NCBI GenBank assembly: GCA_045545295.1
Contig: JAZQAO010000030.1
Span: forward strand, 606-64,605
Direction: 5' to 3'
Length of the DNA: 64,000 nucleotides
Source: Clostridia bacterium
Lineage (GTDB): Bacteria > Bacillota > Clostridia > UMGS1883
Positions 1,796-64,000 of this stretch are shown in pieces. Under the pieces are notes generated by a model, which was given only the letters and a program-made list of their open reading frames with translations, had not been told where the DNA came from and made no database searches. How positions within the stretch are numbered: the first letter of the stretch is position 1; every line of letters starts with the position of its first letter. The translations under genes and the position numbers were made by a program.

Positions 1796-1887
1796 AAAAA
1801 AGAAGCGTGCCGCTTCACCCATGTCGCGCACCTGTAAATGTCGAACATAGCTTCACGCGAATAAAATTACGCAAATTCCTATAAGGT
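1796..1887 (-). repeat. Terminator-adjacent repeat, copy 1 (core type A)
   Basis: The plus strand reads AAAAAAGAAGCGTGCCGCTTCACCCATGTCGCGCACCTGTAAATGTCGAACATAGCTTCACGCGAATAAAATTACGCAAATTCCTATAAGGT. On the minus strand this gives the conserved 5' end, then the GAAGCGGCACGCTTC hairpin plus T6. Confidence 0.9.
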
Positions 1888-1978
1888 AAAAAAGAAGCGT
1901 GCTGCTCCACCCATGTCGCGCACCTGCAAATGTCGAACATAGCTTCACGCGAATAAAAAACGCAATTTCCTATAAATT
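1888..1978 (-). repeat. Terminator-adjacent repeat, copy 2 (core type A, slightly degenerate hairpin GGAGCAGCACGCTTC)
   Basis: Direct head-to-tail continuation of copy 1 and nearly identical over its full length. Confidence 0.9.
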
Positions 1979-2072
1979 AAAAAAAGAAGCGTGCCGCTCC
2001 ACCCATGTCTCACCCTCGCAGGAGTGCATACACAGTTCCCCGAGTCATAATTTGACGCAATTCCTATACGAT
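1979..2072 (-). repeat. Terminator-adjacent repeat, copy 3 (core type B)
   Basis: Same termini as copies 1-2, but the core matches the copies at 35267, 50389 and 63918 (CACCCTCGCAGGAGTGCA...CATAATTTGACGCAA). Confidence 0.9.
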
Positions 2073-2113
2073 AAAAAGAGGAGGGGCGTTACGGAAAAAT
2101 TTCCGTAACGCCC
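2071..2113 (-). terminator. Intrinsic terminator of the 2148-5240 gene
   Basis: Perfect 14-bp stem GGGCGTTACGGAAA / TTTCCGTAACGCCC (2084-2097 / 2100-2113) with a 2-nt loop. On the minus strand it is followed by CTCCTCTTTTT, 35 nt after the stop codon. Confidence 0.8.
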
Positions 2114-35232: not shown

Positions 35233-35266
35233 CACAGTGTGAAAAAAATTTCACACTGTGTTTTTT
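35233..35266 (+). terminator. Intrinsic terminator of the araC-GH95like-araC operon
   Basis: CACAGTGTGAAA / TTTCACACTGTG 12-bp stem followed by T6. Confidence 0.85.
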
Positions 35267-35360
35267 ACCGTATAGGAATTTGCATCAAATTATGACGCAG
35301 GAAACTATGTTTACACTCCTGTAAGGGGGCGACACGGGTGAAGCGGCACGCTTCCTTTTT
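35267..35360 (+). repeat. Terminator-adjacent repeat, copy 4 (core type B, somewhat degenerate)
   Basis: ACCGTATAGGAATTTGCATCAAATTATGACGCAGGAAACTATGTTTACACTCCTGTAAGGGGGCGACACGGGTGAAGCGGCACGCTTCCTTTTT. It begins immediately after the T6 of the preceding terminator. Confidence 0.9.
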
Positions 35361-36081
35361 ATTTATTGTACTTTTCTGCAAATTCTATAAGCGGTGTAAA
35401 GTCTTCAAGTCCGTGGGGGTGATGACCGCAGTTTTCTTTTCCGACAACTGTAATATTTCCGCCGTTTTCACGGTAGTATTTTTCGAGGATTGCCCCGTTT
35501 TCGTCATAGGGAACAACATCGTCACTGTCACCGTATACCATCATAACGGGTATGTTATTTTCAAGAAGAAGGTGCATTTTGTCAATGGGATGCTCTCTGT
35601 AACAAATAAGCACGGGAAGGTCCATACCCATTGCATCTTTAAATTCTTCCCACATGCTGTCTGTTCCCTTACCAAGACCTGCAGGACAGGAAAGGTAATT
35701 CATAACAGGGGCATCAAGATAAAGTGCTGAAACCTTTTCGGGGTATTTTGCCGCAAACTTGCTTCCGATAAGACCGCCGCAGCTCATTCCCACGGGAATA
35801 CACTTTTCATAAAGCCCGTATTCCTTTGAAAGAAAATCCGCAAAGCGTTTCTTTACATCAATATCCTCTTCTTTGCACCAGCGGGTGATATTTTTTATAT
35901 AAGCAAGGTGCCAACCGCGACGTACCATTTCTGCCTCGTAATCTACAAATGCGTGAAAATACTCTGTCTTAAAAAGCCAGTTTCTATTTTCATTGGGGGT
36001 ATCGGGAAAAACAAGGATAGCTTCTCTCCCCTCAAACATAAAATCAATTCTTCTGAAACTATTCCATAATGATTCTGTCAT
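35359..36081 (-). CDS. Alpha/beta-hydrolase esterase
   Basis: Nucleophile elbow GMSCGG, AKYPEKVSALYLDAPVMN and C-terminal GHHPHGLED. The likely start is ATG 36081 (MTESLWNSFRRIDF..., GGGGAG RBS) rather than the track TTG at 36165. The stop codon lies in the T-tract of repeat copy 4. Confidence 0.7.
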   Translation of the reverse strand: MTESLWNSFRRIDFMFEGREAILVFPDTPNENRNWLFKTEYFHAFVDYEAEMVRRGWHLAYIKNITRWCKEEDIDVKKRFADFLSKEYGLYEKCIPVGMSCGGLIGSKFAAKYPEKVSALYLDAPVMNYLSCPAGLGKGTDSMWEEFKDAMGMDLPVLICYREHPIDKMHLLLENNIPVMMVYGDSDDVVPYDENGAILEKYYRENGGNITVVGKENCGHHPHGLEDFTPLIEFAEKYNK

Positions 36082-36376
36082 ATCAAAGACACTCCCCAAC
36101 TTAATATTTATGAAAGCATTGTTCATTTCAGAAAAGATTATAGCATTGTTAAACACATTTGTCAACGATACAAAGCATTCCTTTCACAGTTCAGTTTTAG
36201 AGCAACAATATATTTTCCCTATACATTACCAAACGACCGCTTATCAAAGCCTGCAGCAATTTTCTCACTGCGTTTTCCTGCACGGACAATACGTTATGTG
36301 TTATCCGCTATCCGCTGAATAATCTCGAAAAATTCTTTCTGAATTTCAAAAGTACAAATGAATGAGATTCTTTTTT

Positions 36377-36472
36377 ATCGTATAGGCAATTGCGTTTTTT
36401 ATCGCGAGCAATATTTGTGGGTTTTAAGTTAAGTTTGGACGCGACGTGGGTGAAGCGGCACGCTTCTTTTTT
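36377..36472 (+). repeat. Terminator-adjacent repeat, copy 5 (unique core)
   Basis: ATCGTATAGGCAATTGCGTTTTTTATCGCGAGCAATATTTGTGGGTTTTAAGTTAAGTTTGGACGCGACGTGGGTGAAGCGGCACGCTTCTTTTTT. The family termini are conserved but the core is unrelated in sequence. It is preceded by T6 (36371-36376). Confidence 0.85.
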
Positions 36473-36480
36473 ATTTTACC

Positions 36481-50351: not shown

Positions 50352-50388
50352 CTGCCATACGTAAGTCCTTTACGTATGGCAGTTTTTT
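50352..50388 (+). terminator. lexA intrinsic terminator
   Basis: CTGCCATACGTA / TACGTATGGCAG 12-bp stem followed by T6. Confidence 0.85.
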
Positions 50389-50482
50389 ACCGTATAGGAA
50401 TTTGCGTCAAATTATGACGCAGGAAACTTTGTTTGCACTCCTGCGAGGGTACGACATGGGTGAAGCGGCACGCTTCTTTTTT
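50389..50482 (+). repeat. Terminator-adjacent repeat, copy 6 (core type B, best preserved)
   Basis: ACCGTATAGGAATTTGCGTCAAATTATGACGCAGGAAACTTTGTTTGCACTCCTGCGAGGGTACGACATGGGTGAAGCGGCACGCTTCTTTTTT. It begins immediately after the lexA terminator T6. Confidence 0.9.
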
Positions 50483-50657
50483 AATTTCCGGATATCAGTT
50501 CTTCAAGAGCATACCCTACATTTTTTAAAGCACGGTTAGTTTTTTTATACGCTTTCTTTGCTTTATTCATATTAGGCGGTTCCATCATCATACACACTGA
50601 TCCGCAAATCAGCGAACCTGCGACAAATCCCTTTAAAAAGCCCATCATTTTTCCCAC
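50481..50657 (-). CDS. Hypothetical 58-aa small membrane protein
   Basis: Hand translation after a GGAGGA RBS: (V)GKMMGFLKGFVAGSLICGSVCMMMEPPNMNKAKKAYKKTNRALKNVGYALEELISGN. Too short for the track. The stop codon lies in the T-tract of repeat copy 6. Confidence 0.4.
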   Translation of the reverse strand: MGKMMGFLKGFVAGSLICGSVCMMMEPPNMNKAKKAYKKTNRALKNVGYALEELISGN

Positions 50658-50758
50658 TAAAGATTCCTCCTTCAGATTTGATTTGTATTTAGCATTTGTA
50701 TTTCAATGCGTTAATATACAAAATTTAAAAGGTATTTTTTAGCAAACGGAAATTTTTA

Positions 50759-50787
50759 TTGAAATACACGTCCTTTTGTAGTATAAT
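50759..50787 (+). promoter_or_regulatory. Candidate sigma-A promoter of the HD-domain gene
   Basis: TTGAAA, a 17-nt spacer, then TATAAT, 30 nt upstream of ATG 50818. Confidence 0.45.
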
Positions 50788-50817
50788 AGATTAGATATTT
50801 TGAAAGGGAGTTTTTTT

Positions 50818-53640: not shown

Positions 53641-53928
53641 TTGAAAGATTATATCGAGAGGCGTGCTATAATGCTTGCCGAATACATATTGGAGCACAAC
53701 GCAACTGTACGCGATACCGCAAAGGTATTCGGTTATTCTAAATCCGGCGTACACAAGGACGTTACTGCAAGACTTGAGGAATTTGACCCACTTCTTGCAG
53801 CGGATGTAAAAAAAGTCCTTGACCATAACAAAGCTGAGCGTCATATCCGAGGTGGAATGGCAACAAAGCTGAAGTATGAAAAACAGAAATTATCTGTTAA
53901 TAATAAACACAGCAAGAACACATACTAA
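53641..53928 (+). CDS. spoIIID: Sporulation transcriptional regulator SpoIIID
   Basis: TTG start. (M)KDYIERRAIMLAEYILEHNATVRDTAKVFGYSKSGVHKDVTARLEEFDPLLAADVKKVLDHNKAERHIRGGMATKLKY is collinear with B. subtilis SpoIIID from the first residue. Confidence 0.9.
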   Translation: MKDYIERRAIMLAEYILEHNATVRDTAKVFGYSKSGVHKDVTARLEEFDPLLAADVKKVLDHNKAERHIRGGMATKLKYEKQKLSVNNKHSKNTY

Positions 53929-54543
53929 AATCAAAAATACTCCTGCCAGAACTACCGGAATGTTATTTTTTGCTTTATAGCCCAATTCTCTGTACTCAAT
54001 AATGTTTGCACGTCTGAGAATATTTACAAAAGGCTTATATATTATAAGTGTAAGTGCAGCATTAAGAATATATTTAATGGAGTTAAAAGGAAGTATTGCA
54101 GGTATTAAGAGCTTTACTACGGCTTCTCTTGGAATTTTCATATATAACGGAGTCAATAAATAATTAAGCACCAGCATAGTCGCAACACTGCATACTACTC
54201 CCATCGCCAATGCTATGCCTGCACCTTTAACAGAGCGCATTTTTGAATATATTGCAGATGCAGTGCAGGCAAACGCACACGCCGCCGCAATATTCATAAG
54301 ACAGCCTATTATGTTAGTATCACTGACTGTAAGCATCTCAACAAGCGATACAATAAGGGAAATTAAAAATGCTGCAAACGGGCCGTATACAAACCCACCT
54401 ATTACTATTATAACGTCTTTTGCATCATAGCTTAAAAACGGAAATGCAGCAAACATTGGCGGCATAGTTTTGCACAGAAGCATTACCACATAAGTAAGTG
54501 CCGCAAACATTCCCAAAGCAGTTATTTTTTTTGTCTTATTCAT
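53890..54543 (-). CDS. ribU: ECF-transporter S component, riboflavin-type (RibU-like)
   Basis: Six-TM small protein MNKTKKITALGMFAALTYVVMLL... It sits directly downstream of an FMN riboswitch. GGGAGA RBS. Confidence 0.7.
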   Translation of the reverse strand: MNKTKKITALGMFAALTYVVMLLCKTMPPMFAAFPFLSYDAKDVIIVIGGFVYGPFAAFLISLIVSLVEMLTVSDTNIIGCLMNIAAACAFACTASAIYSKMRSVKGAGIALAMGVVCSVATMLVLNYLLTPLYMKIPREAVVKLLIPAILPFNSIKYILNAALTLIIYKPFVNILRRANIIEYRELGYKAKNNIPVVLAGVFLILVCVLAVFIINR

Positions 54544-54583: not shown

Positions 54584-54745
54584 AAAAGAGCAGACCCGTG
54601 CGGGGTCTGCTCTTTACAATTACTAAAAAACATCTTCTCTCATCCGGACTATACCGTCGGTCACGGAATTGCACCGTGTCATGCATAATGCTTGCGGACT
54701 TTACCGCCGGCAGGGAATTTCACCCACCCCCGAAGAACTGTATTT
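54584..54745 (-). promoter_or_regulatory. FMN riboswitch (RFN element) with terminator expression platform
   Basis: The minus strand reads CAGTTCTTCGGGGGTGGGTGAAATTCCCTGCCGGCGGTAAAGTCCGCAAGC...ACGGTGCAATTCCGTGACCGACGGTATAGTCCGGATGAGAGAAGATG. This matches the conserved RFN core. It is followed by the terminator AAAGAGCAGACCCCGCACGGGTCTGCTCTTTT. Confidence 0.9.
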
Positions 54746-62536: not shown

Positions 62537-63919
62537 GTGATTTTTTTGAGCAATATTACCATTAAAAGCGGTATGAAAATACATCTTATCGGCATTGGTG
62601 GTATCAGTATGTCAGGGATTGCACAGATGCTGGTTAATGACGGATGTATAATTTCCGGTTCTGACCGTTCACCTTCTCCGCTTACTGAAAAACTTGCAGA
62701 GCTAGGTGTCACAATATATATTGGTCACAGTGCAGACAACATCAAAGACAGTGAACTTGTGGTTTACAGTGCCGCAATCGGAGAAGACAATCCGGAAAGA
62801 TTACGTGCGAGAGAGCTTGGTATAAAAGAAATAGACAGAGCAGAAATGCTGGGCATTATAATGAAAGAATACGATTGCCCCATTGCCATAAGCGGTACCC
62901 ACGGAAAAACTACTACAACAGGTATGCTTTCTCATATATTTGTCGAATGTGGCAAAAATCCTACAATTACCGTAGGTGGCGAGCTTGATATTATTCACGG
63001 TAATGTTCATATCGGTGACAAAAACTATTTCATTGCTGAGGCTTGCGAATATCATCAGAGTTTTCTTCGTTTCTTCCCTAAAGTTTCTGTAATTACCAAT
63101 ATCGAGGCAGACCATCTTGACTATTTCAAGGATCTTGACCACATTATAGAAACCTTCAGAGGGCTTGCACTTCTCACGCCTGAGGATGGTGCCATTATTA
63201 TAAACGGAGAGGATGCAAATATCAGAAAAGCTATTGAAGGTATCAACCGCAAGGTTGTGACGTTCGGCATTCACGGTGATTTTGACTATACAATTGATAA
63301 TCTCAATCATAACGGATACAACCATTATACCTTTACAGTTTGCAAAAAAGGTAACCCGGTTGGTGAAATCAGGCTGTCCGTTCCGGGAATTCACAATGTG
63401 TACGATGCACTTGCAGCATTTGCAGCAGCGGAACACCTTGGTGTTCCGGCAGAGGATATATGCGACTCCCTCCACCACTTCGGCGGAACTCATCGCCGTT
63501 TTGAAACCCGCGGAATTATGGGTGGAATCGTAGTTGTCGACGATTACTCTCATCACCCGACGGAAATAAAGGCAACACTTGCAACTGCCAAAGATATGAA
63601 ATACAACAACGTATGGTGCGTATTTCAGCCCCACACCTACACAAGAACAAAAACTCTTTTCGACGATTTTGTGAAGGTGCTTACTGAAAGCGGTGTTAAC
63701 ATTGTCATAACAGACATTTATGCCGCAAGAGAAATAGATACCGGCATTGTGTCTGCACAGCAGCTTGCAAATTCTATTCCCAATGCGGTATATAAAAAGA
63801 CATTTAACGATGCAGCTGATTTTATAAAAGCACAGGCAAAAAAAGGTGATCTTGTTATAACAATGGGCGCCGGTGACGTGTATAAAATCGGAGATATTTT
63901 ACTTTCGTACAATGAATAA
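62537..63919 (+). CDS. murC: UDP-N-acetylmuramate--L-alanine ligase MurC
   Basis: KIHLIGIGGISMSGIAQML, ISGTHGKTTTTGML and DDYSHHPTEI. The start is uncertain (GTG 62537, TTG 62546 or ATG 62573). Confidence 0.9.
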   Translation: MIFLSNITIKSGMKIHLIGIGGISMSGIAQMLVNDGCIISGSDRSPSPLTEKLAELGVTIYIGHSADNIKDSELVVYSAAIGEDNPERLRARELGIKEIDRAEMLGIIMKEYDCPIAISGTHGKTTTTGMLSHIFVECGKNPTITVGGELDIIHGNVHIGDKNYFIAEACEYHQSFLRFFPKVSVITNIEADHLDYFKDLDHIIETFRGLALLTPEDGAIIINGEDANIRKAIEGINRKVVTFGIHGDFDYTIDNLNHNGYNHYTFTVCKKGNPVGEIRLSVPGIHNVYDALAAFAAAEHLGVPAEDICDSLHHFGGTHRRFETRGIMGGIVVVDDYSHHPTEIKATLATAKDMKYNNVWCVFQPHTYTRTKTLFDDFVKVLTESGVNIVITDIYAAREIDTGIVSAQQLANSIPNAVYKKTFNDAADFIKAQAKKGDLVITMGAGDVYKIGDILLSYNE

Positions 63920-64000
63920 AAAAGAAGCGTGCCGCTTCACCCATGTCGCACCCTCGCAGGAGTGCAAACAAAGTTTCCTGCGTCATAATTTGACACAAAT
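63918..64000 (-). repeat. Terminator-adjacent repeat, copy 7 (core type B), truncated by the window end
   Basis: AAAAAAGAAGCGTGCCGCTTCACCCATGTCGCACCCTCGCAGGAGTGCAAACAAAGTTTCCTGCGTCATAATTTGACACAAAT. Its A-run overlaps the murC TAA stop codon. Confidence 0.9.

Follow-up and report, generated by a model that had tools for sequence, protein, structure and literature searches.

A small non-coding repeat family of gut and rumen Clostridia, probably a non-autonomous mobile element of terminator T-runs

The lexA gene of this Clostridia contig is followed, directly behind its terminator, by a short repeat that recurs elsewhere in the same DNA, which raises the question of what the repeat is and how it came to lie there. 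In the window (the whole 64-kb stretch of DNA that was analysed) the first-pass annotation had listed seven copies, and their positions were reproduced by both a scan for the 3' 19-mer GGGTGAAGCGGCACGCTTC (seven matches against a chance expectation of 0.02, with up to three mismatches allowed) and a profile HMM built from 54 copies, which matched these seven alone (E 1e-14 to 1e-23). The copy density is thus 7 per 64 kb, or ~1 per 9 kb. The 5' end CGTATAGGAATTTGCG, previously described as common to all copies, was found by a motif scan of the window in five of them with 0–3 mismatches; the copy at 1979-2072, the sixth complete one, carries a 1-nt deletion within it, and the copy at 63918 is cut by the window end. 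The division into type B, type A and an odd-core class was borne out by pairwise identities of 83–97% within type B, 91% within type A and ~66–77% between types. The 'odd' copy at 36377 belongs to type C, the most frequent type in other genomes.

The element proper is CNGTATAGGAAWTTGCG...GCGA-NNN-GGGTGAAGCGGCACGCTTC, ~87 bp long with a family range of about 85–90 bp. As had been noted at the outset, it contains no ORF and has no terminal inverted repeats, the first 35 nt aligning locally with the reverse complement of the last 35 nt at shuffle level in types C, AB and B; scanning for sigma-70 promoters gave none inside the elements. The focal copy (type B, 87 nt, CCGTATAGG...GGGTGAAGCGGCACGCTTC, positions 50390..50476, plus strand, located by motif scans and the profile HMM) is inserted beside the hairpin of the lexA intrinsic terminator (CTGCCATACGTAA-GTCCT-TTACGTATGGCAG, 50353..50382, plus strand), which was read from the sequence and has an upstream fold of ~−24 kcal/mol. 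The heptamer TTTTTTA separates that hairpin from the element (50383..50389, plus strand) and recurs (50477..50483, plus strand) immediately after the 3' hairpin of the element, GAAGCG-GCA-CGCTTC (50462-50476, plus strand), as the two copies of a target-site duplication (TSD). The TTA at 50481-50483 in the downstream copy is the stop codon of a convergent 58-aa ORF (50481..50657, minus strand), and at the empty lexA sites of relatives the stop codon of the adjoining gene likewise lies inside the T-run, as hairpin-T5A.

The type B element at 35268..35354 (plus strand; motif scan and profile HMM) is preceded by TTTTTTA (35261..35267, plus strand), which abuts the bidirectional terminator of an AraC-family gene, and followed by CTTTTTA (35355..35361, plus strand), with one mismatch, whose TTA at 35359-35361 is the stop of a convergent alpha/beta-hydrolase gene. 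The type C element at 36379..36466 (plus strand; motif scan and profile HMM) lies between two copies of TTTTTTAT (36371..36378 and 36467..36474, plus strand), has no real terminator hairpin before it and points against both adjacent genes. On the minus strand, a head-to-tail array of three copies (1796..2077) lies downstream of the terminator of an SLH-protein gene (2084-2113); single T5-7A tracts precede the first member, separate the members and follow the last, and the cores lie approximately at 2071-1986 (type B), 1977-1894 (type A) and 1886-1802 (type A). The type B copy cut by the window end (63917..64000, minus strand, core 64000-63924) has its downstream TSD copy at 63923-63917 (minus strand), and TTA 63917-63919 is the stop codon of a convergent Mur-ligase gene. 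The first-pass statements that a T5-6 tract precedes every copy with a visible flank, and that the upstream LexA, AraC and SLH genes share the orientation of the element, both held. The reverse strand was also considered as the functional strand; this was dropped, since the hairpins abut convergent stop codons because the TSD contains the TAA stop of the neighbour.

Across the family the target is a T-rich heptamer with the consensus TTTTTTR, its T-run always on the sense strand of the element, and ~7 bp of it are duplicated, one copy per flank. Either flank is rich in T to begin with, so that unrelated pairs have 7 nt or more in common in ~16% of cases; flank repeats of that length were present in 35% of true pairs versus 16% of permuted ones, and the observed count was not reached in any of 2000 permutations. 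Irregular targets are found repeated on the two flanks of the same copy, among them TTTGTTA (L054), TTTCTAA (L064), TTTTTGT (L063), TTTTTTGC (L061 and L079), TTTTTAAT (L022), TTATTT (L021 and L081) and TTACTTTTTTAT (L091); about half of the irregular-flank copies are without a clean duplication and may be old or rearranged. The TSD is most often 7 bp long, with a spread of 6–9 bp and one case of 12, and such variable length is unusual for a classical transposase. At L064 a downstream copy with a perfect TTTCTAA TSD stands right after the hairpin of an older copy, a tandem that appears from its sequence to reflect sequential insertion.

These duplications change how the 3' end is to be understood. 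The annotation had described a textbook, invariant terminator built into each copy. The hairpin does come from the element and is strongly conserved, yet it is not invariant, and with a 6-bp stem, a 3-nt loop and a ΔG of −5.8 to about −7 kcal/mol it is too weak for a textbook example; the T6 that follows is the duplicated target. A terminator consensus scan matched at 35340-35354, 36452-36466 and 50462-50476, so hairpin plus T-run has the layout of an intrinsic terminator, a GC-rich stem-loop with a U-tract after it, albeit with a weak stem and a T-run derived from the target; its termination activity is putative.

The sites chosen are mostly terminators of host genes. A hairpin of ΔG ≤ −10 kcal/mol ending no more than 3 nt from the T-run was present at 38 of 55 non-tandem copies, compared with 14 of 275 controls (5%), and a looser count, made by hand from the listed copies, gave 46 of 55 with a hairpin within 7 nt. 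The T-run is accordingly the U-tract of a host intrinsic terminator in about 70–85% of cases. Occupancy of T6R sites in the window was 2/3 for hairpin-linked sites, ~1/17 for other intergenic sites and 0/70 for coding sites. Selection against polar insertions, rather than targeting, could lie behind this preference, partly or wholly.

Orthologous loci show that the sites can be empty. The lexA site has no element in any of the relatives read there, which have 91–93% identical LexA proteins; they carry a different hairpin in the same place, with 33–57 nt between the two genes. The LexA protein of the window has no exact match on record. In a second filled/empty pair, L090 reads hairpin-T7-GT where L063 reads hairpin-T6GT-element-T5GT, with flanks that are 80–86% identical. 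Both comparisons set a filled site of one species against an empty site of another (80–93% identity), not strains of one species against each other. L046 and L081 (88% identity) have insertions at one orthologous gene end that differ in position and orientation, and these appear to be independent events. At L100, found by a hydrolase-homologue search with 79% protein identity and only distant synteny, the AraC/hydrolase spacer is without the element. The lexA neighbourhoods of relatives contain one distinct canonical insertion in 311 kb, much of which represents redundant strains, versus seven in the 64-kb window. Other copies, those common to related species (L040/L086 and L032/L050), are older. 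The hosts of the family are uncultured Clostridia of the gut and rumen (Oscillospiraceae and relatives).

The 3' end has a wider distribution than the element. The same 19-mer terminates different bodies in Melainabacteria and in one GC-rich Eubacteriales MAG, where no T-run duplication is visible. The helix 5' of GGGTG varies between families and still pairs (TCGCG/CGCGA, TCGCA/TGCGA, GCGCCGC/GCGGCGC and ACCC/GGGT), from which we infer that the 3' end is a folded module made of a variable helix, a 3–5 nt linker, GGGTG and the hairpin AAGCG-GCA-CGCTT. A metagenome scan that excluded canonical bodies gave 14 matches, which were Melainabacteria units, one mini-derivative and, in GC-rich genomes, chance matches in coding sequence. 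That Clostridia and Melainabacteria have an identical 19-mer suggests that gut phyla exchanged the mobilising system.

Searches for known relatives and for a partner were negative throughout. In agreement with the initial view that this is no named Rfam family, type B gave no element match at the gathering threshold and only spurious low scores at E ≤ 10, and types C and A gave no match at E ≤ 1. The sole Rfam match in the window at the gathering threshold was an FMN riboswitch elsewhere. There was no blastn match in plasmid and phage collections, no match to the hairpin sequence in a full-text literature search, and one chance match for each of the 3' and 5' motifs in viral contigs. A transposase with the same termini, the partner that the first pass had proposed to look for, was not present in the loci around copies; this ~1.1 Mb of DNA yielded neither a mobilising gene nor an autonomous copy nor an IS with matching ends. 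Beside 19-mers in odd contexts there was no reverse transcriptase, and inspection of ORFs revealed no transposase-like gene, Y1 included. Across all loci, 5' ends that lack a 3' end were short 3'-truncated fragments (L017 and L049) or chance matches. Copies at L077, L064, L065 and L029/L113 were considered as 5'-truncated products of target-primed reverse transcription (TPRT) and are more plausibly explained by microhomology or internal deletion.

Taken together, the TSDs, the empty orthologous sites that the first pass had proposed to look for, found at lexA and at L090 versus L063, the independent insertions and the spread across species favour one of the three explanations originally offered, and we consider it probable that these repeats are a family of small, non-coding, non-autonomous mobile elements that insert in one orientation into terminator T-runs with a TSD of ~7 bp. 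Since no mobilising gene was present in the DNA read, mobilisation in trans is inferred: a protein encoded elsewhere would move the element, recognising its 5' end CNGTATAGGAAWTTGCG and the folded 3' module, and would make cuts in the two target strands ~7 nt apart. Once the element is in place, its weak hairpin and the duplicated T-run would resemble a second terminator and would also restore the preferred target of hairpin plus T-run, which would explain why copies of different subfamilies form head-to-tail arrays. A site behind a terminator that already exists would be nearly neutral for the host, and this would let the copy number reach 7 per 64 kb. For the transposition intermediate we lean slightly towards DNA over RNA.

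An RNA intermediate is the core of the strongest alternative, a SINE-like retroposon, which is unlikely but deserves to be set out in full. A read-through RNA ending at its own hairpin and T-run would be inserted by target-primed reverse transcription, its 3' U-tail pairing with the A-run at a nick in a T6R target while the 3' hairpin module is recognised by a reverse transcriptase that copies the RNA into the target, a route that would yield a T-rich TSD and a fixed orientation. Several features fit: the absence of terminal inverted repeats, a homopolymer target complementary to the expected RNA tail with strictly fixed orientation, TSD lengths from 6 to 12 bp, and one or two additional T between CGCTTC and the TSD in ~11 of 60 copies. 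Variant hairpins GGAGCG/CGCTTT pair solely through G-U/G-T on the sense strand, and the between-family covariation of the helix before GGGTG suggests a folded single strand. The element starts ~7 nt past the host hairpin, and terminated transcripts are expected to end ~7 nt after a terminator hairpin. Only the 3' module is common across phyla, bodies and 5' ends being different, and LINE/SINE partners likewise have only a 3' tail in common; eukaryotic SINEs, used here purely as an analogy, also lack terminal inverted repeats and combine a homopolymer-rich target, a TSD, fixed orientation and a 3' tail that recurs across unrelated families. For the present family, by contrast with LINE-mobilised SINEs, the searches brought up neither an autonomous partner nor a reverse transcriptase, the promoter scan was negative, and no sign of an RNA intermediate emerged. 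Without a promoter and behind a terminator, the RNA would be rare, and its defined 5' end is left without explanation. Where copies are incomplete, they show internal deletions or amount to 5' fragments that lack the 3' part (L017, L049 and L117), instead of the 5' truncations typical of TPRT, and TSD lengths keep rather uniformly to the mode of 7 bp. We know of no TPRT of a non-intron RNA in bacteria. A precedent for terminator-targeting bacterial retroelements does exist in the class C group II introns (PMC7306698). The full proposition, that the family is a bacterial SINE-like retroposon whose terminator-ended RNA primes with its own U-tail for a reverse transcriptase reading the cross-phylum 19-nt hairpin, is if anything more doubtful still.

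It is very unlikely that the family derives from a single-strand HUH/Y1 system, either as an IS200/IS605-type PATE or as a REP/REPIN moved by RAYT, with the 3' hairpin and its 5' GGGT(G) tag as the putative transposase binding site. Neither IS200/IS605 nor REP/RAYT systems are known to duplicate their target on insertion: PATEs insert 3' of a short target and carry similar sub-terminal hairpins at both ends, and REPs are not known to have a TSD. In contrast, co-varying repeats flank the present element, and its 5' end is without a matching hairpin, the 5' hairpin being dissimilar to the 3' one where it is present at all. The lack of terminal inverted repeats, orientation-specific insertion next to a short T-rich motif, and REP-like placement after genes and between convergent genes would suit such an origin. 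Copies lie in both orientations although the sign of the GC skew is the same in 15 of 16 4-kb bins, which argues against strict lagging-strand targeting, and ORF inspection found no Y1 transposase gene beside any copy. REPs resemble this element in having a short GC-rich hairpin whose 5' tag is conserved and unpaired, and in their extragenic position downstream of genes (PMC3733652), but they are 20–40 nt long, have a GTAG or CGTC tag and often form inverted pairs (PMC3733652). Here, the tag is neither of these; GGGTG precedes a hairpin that ends an 87-nt unit flanked by a TSD, and copies stand alone or head-to-tail, with one inverted pair as the exception, two opposite-orientation copies that flank one bidirectional host terminator (L051).

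Very unlikely, too, is a host-serving RNA module, in the form of a multicopy sRNA or a 3'-UTR or back-up terminator cassette kept for its function with spread as a secondary matter, which was the second of the original explanations. The match of hairpin and T-run to the terminator consensus, the position of copies behind the weak points in transcription units and between genes that converge, the presence of the GGA motifs AUAGGAAU and GCAGGAAAC, and the proposal that pneumococcal SPRITE elements are co-opted terminators (PMC3049150) are all in keeping with such a role. However, orthologous sites in close relatives are empty and occupancy is patchy, no promoter was found, and one window copy is directed against both neighbouring genes. 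Sense-strand folding was no better than that of shuffles (z −1.4 to +0.9), RNAalifold on a mixed-type alignment recovered the terminal hairpin alone, and pair counting in 36 type C copies gave nothing informative on covariation within the subfamily, because the helices hardly vary. Moreover, the weak hairpin (about −6 to −7 kcal/mol) usually adjoins a far stronger host terminator upstream. The third original idea, an uptake or recombination signal, leaves the TSDs and the 87-bp body without explanation. Least probable of all is enzyme-free copy-choice, in which replication stalled at a hairpin and T-run would switch template through T-run microhomology and copy the intervening DNA: donor and target are alike (hairpin then T6R), the flank repeats are of microhomology size and somewhat variable, and tandem copy number differs at one orthologous Melainabacteria locus (L105, L108 and L111), but the conserved 19-mer and 5' end across phyla are left unexplained, ordinary inter-terminator segments have not spread likewise, and irregular heptamers occur on both flanks where template switching should leave donor sequence on one.

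The mobile element proposed here resembles known small interspersed repeats, SPRITE and bcr1, and its site choice that of class C group II introns. SPRITE of S. pneumoniae, compared by description and not by sequence, is likewise a ~100-bp AT-rich interspersed Firmicute repeat with a stem followed by a U-rich tract, lies near gene 3' ends with strong enrichment between convergent genes, and has no matching IS end or known partner (PMC3049150). The duplex of SPRITE measures 18 bp, its termini are AAAA/TTTT and its only hosts are S. pneumoniae and S. mitis; neither a TSD nor empty sites could be demonstrated for it (PMC3049150). Our element, in contrast, has a 6-bp stem, a T-run that is duplicated target, a defined T6R site after a hairpin and a cross-phylum 3' hairpin. 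The bcr1/group A repeats of Bacillus cereus are also small non-coding, mobile-like Firmicute repeats that are patchy among strains and have short T-rich direct repeats, in bcr1 the 5-bp TTTAT (PMC3184786; PMC6542083). bcr1 differs in being ~155 bp long, transcribed, folded as a double-hairpin 'cruciform' with compensatory changes and tied to the TTTAT motif rather than to terminators, as opposed to ~87 bp, a 7-bp T6R TSD and a location behind terminators. MITEs (as defined in PMC3184786) are similarly small, ORF-less and of high copy number, with TSDs, conserved ends, variable cores and filled and empty sites, but the terminal inverted repeats that define them are absent here, and neither the ~1.1 Mb read nor the motif scans yielded an IS with the same ends. 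Class C introns insert, like this element, directly downstream of Rho-independent terminators in one orientation, reading structure more than sequence, a way of 'hiding' that keeps damage to the host small (PMC7306698). However, they are ribozymes of 0.6–2 kb with six domains, an RT ORF, GUGYG...AY ends and no target duplication, whereas the present element has 87 nt, the ends CNGUAUAGG...CGCUUC, a TSD and no Rfam match, group II intron models included.

To our knowledge, no bacterial transposition mechanism has been described that combines the absence of terminal inverted repeats, an asymmetric homopolymer TSD of ~7 bp and strict orientation behind hairpins. The partner enzyme would therefore reveal either an unusual transposase that reads terminator structure or a new bacterial retrotransposition pathway; if the SINE-like reading were true, bacteria would have a target-primed route for the retrotransposition of a non-intron RNA. 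At ~1 copy per 9 kb the family adds terminator-like hairpins behind many genes, its tandem arrays break metagenome assemblies, and the element is a source of strain-level markers for the poorly known Oscillospiraceae of gut and rumen.

The non-coding repeat of ∼87 bp beside lexA (50390–50476, plus strand), here called the T-tract element, is real and lies beyond chance. Its conserved 3′ end, the 19-mer GGGTGAAGCGGCACGCTTC, which includes the hairpin GAAGCG-GCA-CGCTTC, matches the window seven times with up to three mismatches versus 0.02 matches expected. The 5′ motif was found again at the expected distance from the 19-mer, and a profile HMM with 54 copies as input returned exactly the same seven copies and no other match. 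The first-pass annotation was thus borne out for the copies at 1979, 35267, 50389 and 63918 (type B), 1796 and 1888 (type A) and 36377 (type C), the types being subfamilies distinguished by their cores. Identity is 83–97% among type B copies, 91% between the two of type A and ∼66–77% across types. The neighbours named earlier, LexA, an AraC-family regulator and an SLH-domain protein, were confirmed, and the convergent neighbours of window copies additionally include a Mur ligase and an alpha/beta hydrolase. The window has a GC content of 0.37–0.44, and its GC skew (1–64000) has a negative sign in 15 of the 16 4-kb bins, which means that no replication origin or terminus lies inside. It also contains an FMN riboswitch (RF00050) at 54628–54741 (minus strand; 103 bits, with the gathering score at 66), located 5′ of the gene 53890–54543 on the same strand; orthologues of this gene in relatives match Pfam ECF_trnsprt and, weakly, ECF-ribofla_trS.

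For target-site duplication (TSD), the core was defined as GTATAGG...CGCTTC and the sequence 5′ of it was compared with the sequence 3′ of it. Non-T bases are repeated on both sides of single copies as TTTGTTA (L054), TTTCTAA (L064) and TTTTTGT (L063), L-numbers denoting genomic loci fetched from other assemblies. Further two-sided irregular flanks are TTTTTTGC (L061, L079), TTTTTAAT (L022), TTATTT (L021, L081) and TTATAT (L007), and L091 is flanked by a single 12-mer duplication taking in some of the host stem. At least 7 nt are common to 35% of true flank pairs versus 16% of permuted pairs, a background raised by the T-richness of both flanks, and the observed count was reached in 0 of 2,000 permutations. 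The commonest TSD length, 7 bp, is seen in 17 of 60 copies; because of the T-rich background, and because about half of the irregular-flank copies have no clean repeat, the length is best taken as approximately 6–9 bp, once 12. A run of T6, neither longer nor shorter, precedes the core in 31 of 61 copies; the distance from T-run to core start is usually 3 nt. The T-run after the 3′ hairpin is duplicated target, so that the element proper comprises ∼85–90 bp, C-N-GTATAGG...CGCTTC, inserted in TTTTTTR (T6R); it has no terminal inverted repeats (TIRs). The 'own invariant terminator' claimed for the repeat stands only in part: the hairpin belongs to the element, but the T-run is duplicated target, and the 19-mer is highly conserved yet not invariant, with one or two changes in copies recovered independently of the search pattern. 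The hairpin (6 bp, 3-nt loop, −5.8 to −7 kcal/mol) is far weaker than the host terminators 5′ of the element (about −15 to −30). Joined to the duplicated T-run, it is picked up as a putative terminator by a consensus scan.

The earlier suggestion of a mobile element proved right in substance, given the TSDs, filled versus empty sites and independent insertions. At the empty site L090, T7-GT comes after a host hairpin, whereas at the filled site L063, with flanks 80–86% identical to L090, T6GT, the element and T5GT come in succession after this same hairpin. Relatives with a LexA 91–93% identical have the order lexA, terminator, convergent 58-aa ORF with no element; the genes are merely 33–57 nt apart, and the T5A after each hairpin includes the TAA stop of the small ORF. 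In the window the same arrangement is interrupted by the element, with TTTTTTA at 50383–50389 and 50477–50483, the downstream one providing the stop codon of the 58-aa ORF. Many copies abut the stop codon of a convergent gene because, as at lexA, the duplicated target contains that stop. L046 and L081 (88% identical) carry insertions at one orthologous gene end in different positions and opposite orientations, and at L051 a single bidirectional terminator has a copy on either side, each sense strand reading away from the hairpin. Older copies are common to related species (L040/L086 and L032/L050). Relatives' lexA neighbourhoods, much of them redundant strains, hold one distinct canonical insertion in 311 kb versus seven in the 64-kb window.

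Most relatives (among L117–L127 and L138–L148) have a PAP2-family phosphatase gene (173–177 aa) between the 58-aa ORF and an HD-domain gene, which the window (50481–50800) and the L128–L136 group lack. L117:3640–3800 and L003:32–190 (both minus strand) share a further repeat or RNA-like element, ∼160 nt long and containing three or four hairpins. Its hairpins show compensatory changes between the two species (for example, GTTAAGGGGTTTCCCCTTAAC versus GTTAAGGGGGCTACCCCCTTGAC and GGCACGGTGAGTGCC versus CCGCGGTGAGCGG), it terminates at a terminator and it has no Rfam match at E ≤ 1. The L117 copy sits in the interval from lexA to the small ORF, adjoining a 3′-truncated 5′ fragment of the T-tract element.

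Hairpins with a folding energy of −10 kcal/mol or below that end within 3 nt of the T-run lie directly 5′ of 38 of 55 non-tandem copies (46 of 55, counted by hand, with up to 7 nt allowed), compared with 14 of 275 random control positions; about one-sixth of copies, 36377 among them, lie behind a T-run without a hairpin. Occupancy of T6R sites in the window is 2 of 3 where hairpin-linked and intergenic, ∼1 of 17 at other intergenic sites and 0 of 70 in coding sequence. This preference may reflect targeting or else selection against polar insertions, and the data fit either. A copy's terminal hairpin and the duplicated T-run behind it appear to serve as a target in their turn: in L064 the downstream copy, with its perfect TTTCTAA duplication, is placed directly behind an older copy's hairpin, and subfamilies are mixed within arrays (B-A-A in the window; L049; L076).

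A 19-mer scan of one genome per species gave at least 94 loci. Among the matches listed, most are from MAGs of gut or rumen origin, labelled 'Clostridia bacterium' or Oscillospiraceae, in many species bins, some of which supply a dozen loci each, and the commonest body is type C, that of the window's 'odd' 36377 copy. Synteny at ∼74% identity between window 57.6–63.9 kb and L032, a locus of an uncultured Oscillospiraceae bacterium, places the source organism in the Oscillospiraceae group. In Melainabacteria/Gastranaerophilales the same 19-mer terminates different units of 63–64 nt, often in tandem. The orthologous loci L105:6873–7100, L108:6490–6750, L111:12240–12330 and L072:5000–5090 share the upstream terminator and the convergent gene, and carry one to four tandem units of 62–64 nt, each ending in the 19-mer, with VNTR-like number variation and the final hairpin adjoining the neighbour's stop codon. 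In the GC-rich Eubacteriales MAG JAZRVE, the 19-mer closes, without a T-run, a repeat region of about 300–460 nt packed with GC-rich hairpins (L009, L012, L013, L019, L041, L055, L062, L074, L078; 70–87% identity between contigs), near which Rfam detected only a tRNA (L013). A ∼28-nt mini-derivative, ACCGTGTAT or CTGTTCAT followed by the 19-mer with T-runs on both sides, lies on the opposite strand in a gene's 5′ leader at L029:1650–1700 and L113:30–80, the same locus conserved in two sources. Matches within ORFs of GC-rich Proteobacteria, Acidobacteria and others (L026, L052, L068, L104, L106, L107, L112), translated as ...GEAARF..., were rejected as chance and are a caveat for every pattern-based census of the element.

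The helix directly 5′ of NNN-GGGTG differs in sequence between families while keeping its complementarity: types C and A have TCGCG/CGCGA, type AB has TCGCA/TGCGA, the GC-rich lineage has GCGCCGC/GCGGCGC and Melainabacteria have ACCC/GGGT. Variants of the hairpin, GGAGCG/CGCTTT for example, keep pairing solely through G-T/G-U on the sense strand. These two features together suggest that the 3′ module is recognised as a folded single strand. Sense-strand folding is no better than that of shuffled sequence (z −1.4 to +0.9), and pair counts are neutral because candidate helices barely vary within the commonest subfamily. In line with the first-pass annotation, which recognised no Rfam family, the repeats have no Rfam match at curated thresholds; under permissive settings type B had only spurious low-score matches, and types C and A had none at E ≤ 1. 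The element was not found in the phage and plasmid collections searched or in the literature collection searched in full text, and a promoter scan detected no sigma-70-like promoter inside it.

The sequences show orientation-specific insertion into T6R with a ∼7-bp duplication by an element with no TIR, ORF or promoter, which would be mobilised in trans by an enzyme recognising two different ends. Fetched DNA contained no long element with these ends, copies in odd contexts had no transposase-like neighbour, and neither a metagenome scan designed to leave out canonical bodies nor a scan of viral contigs revealed a partner enzyme. A SINE-like route, in which a U-tail anneals to the target A-run and is reverse transcribed, would account for the homopolymer target, fixed orientation, slightly variable TSD and sharing of the 3′ module alone between families; we consider it rather unlikely, since no RT partner or promoter was found and incomplete copies are internally deleted or 3′-truncated, never 5′-truncated. 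The TSD is what a classical DDE transposase would leave, but the absence of TIRs speaks against one. IS200/IS605, RAYT, IS91 or tyrosine/serine recombinases would suit the asymmetry as well as the hairpin, yet would not explain a true duplication, and irregular heptamers flank copies on both sides. A strictly lagging-strand mechanism is at odds with copies in both directions under a skew of nearly uniform sign. Overall, we place a DNA route ahead of an RNA route by a small edge.

The element is not assigned to any named family, since it lacks the TIRs that define MITEs, differs from REPs in tag, size and pairing, and fails as a group II intron on the ribozyme tests; its kind is already known. 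The nearest in kind are small interspersed repeats known from Firmicutes. One is SPRITE of pneumococci, which looks like a terminator, is concentrated between convergent genes, has no known partner and has a TSD that was never established (PMC3049150); the other is bcr1 of the Bacillus cereus group, with 5-bp T-rich direct repeats (PMC3184786, PMC6542083). In site choice it is nearest to class C group II introns, which insert behind Rho-independent terminators guided more by structure than by sequence (PMC7306698).
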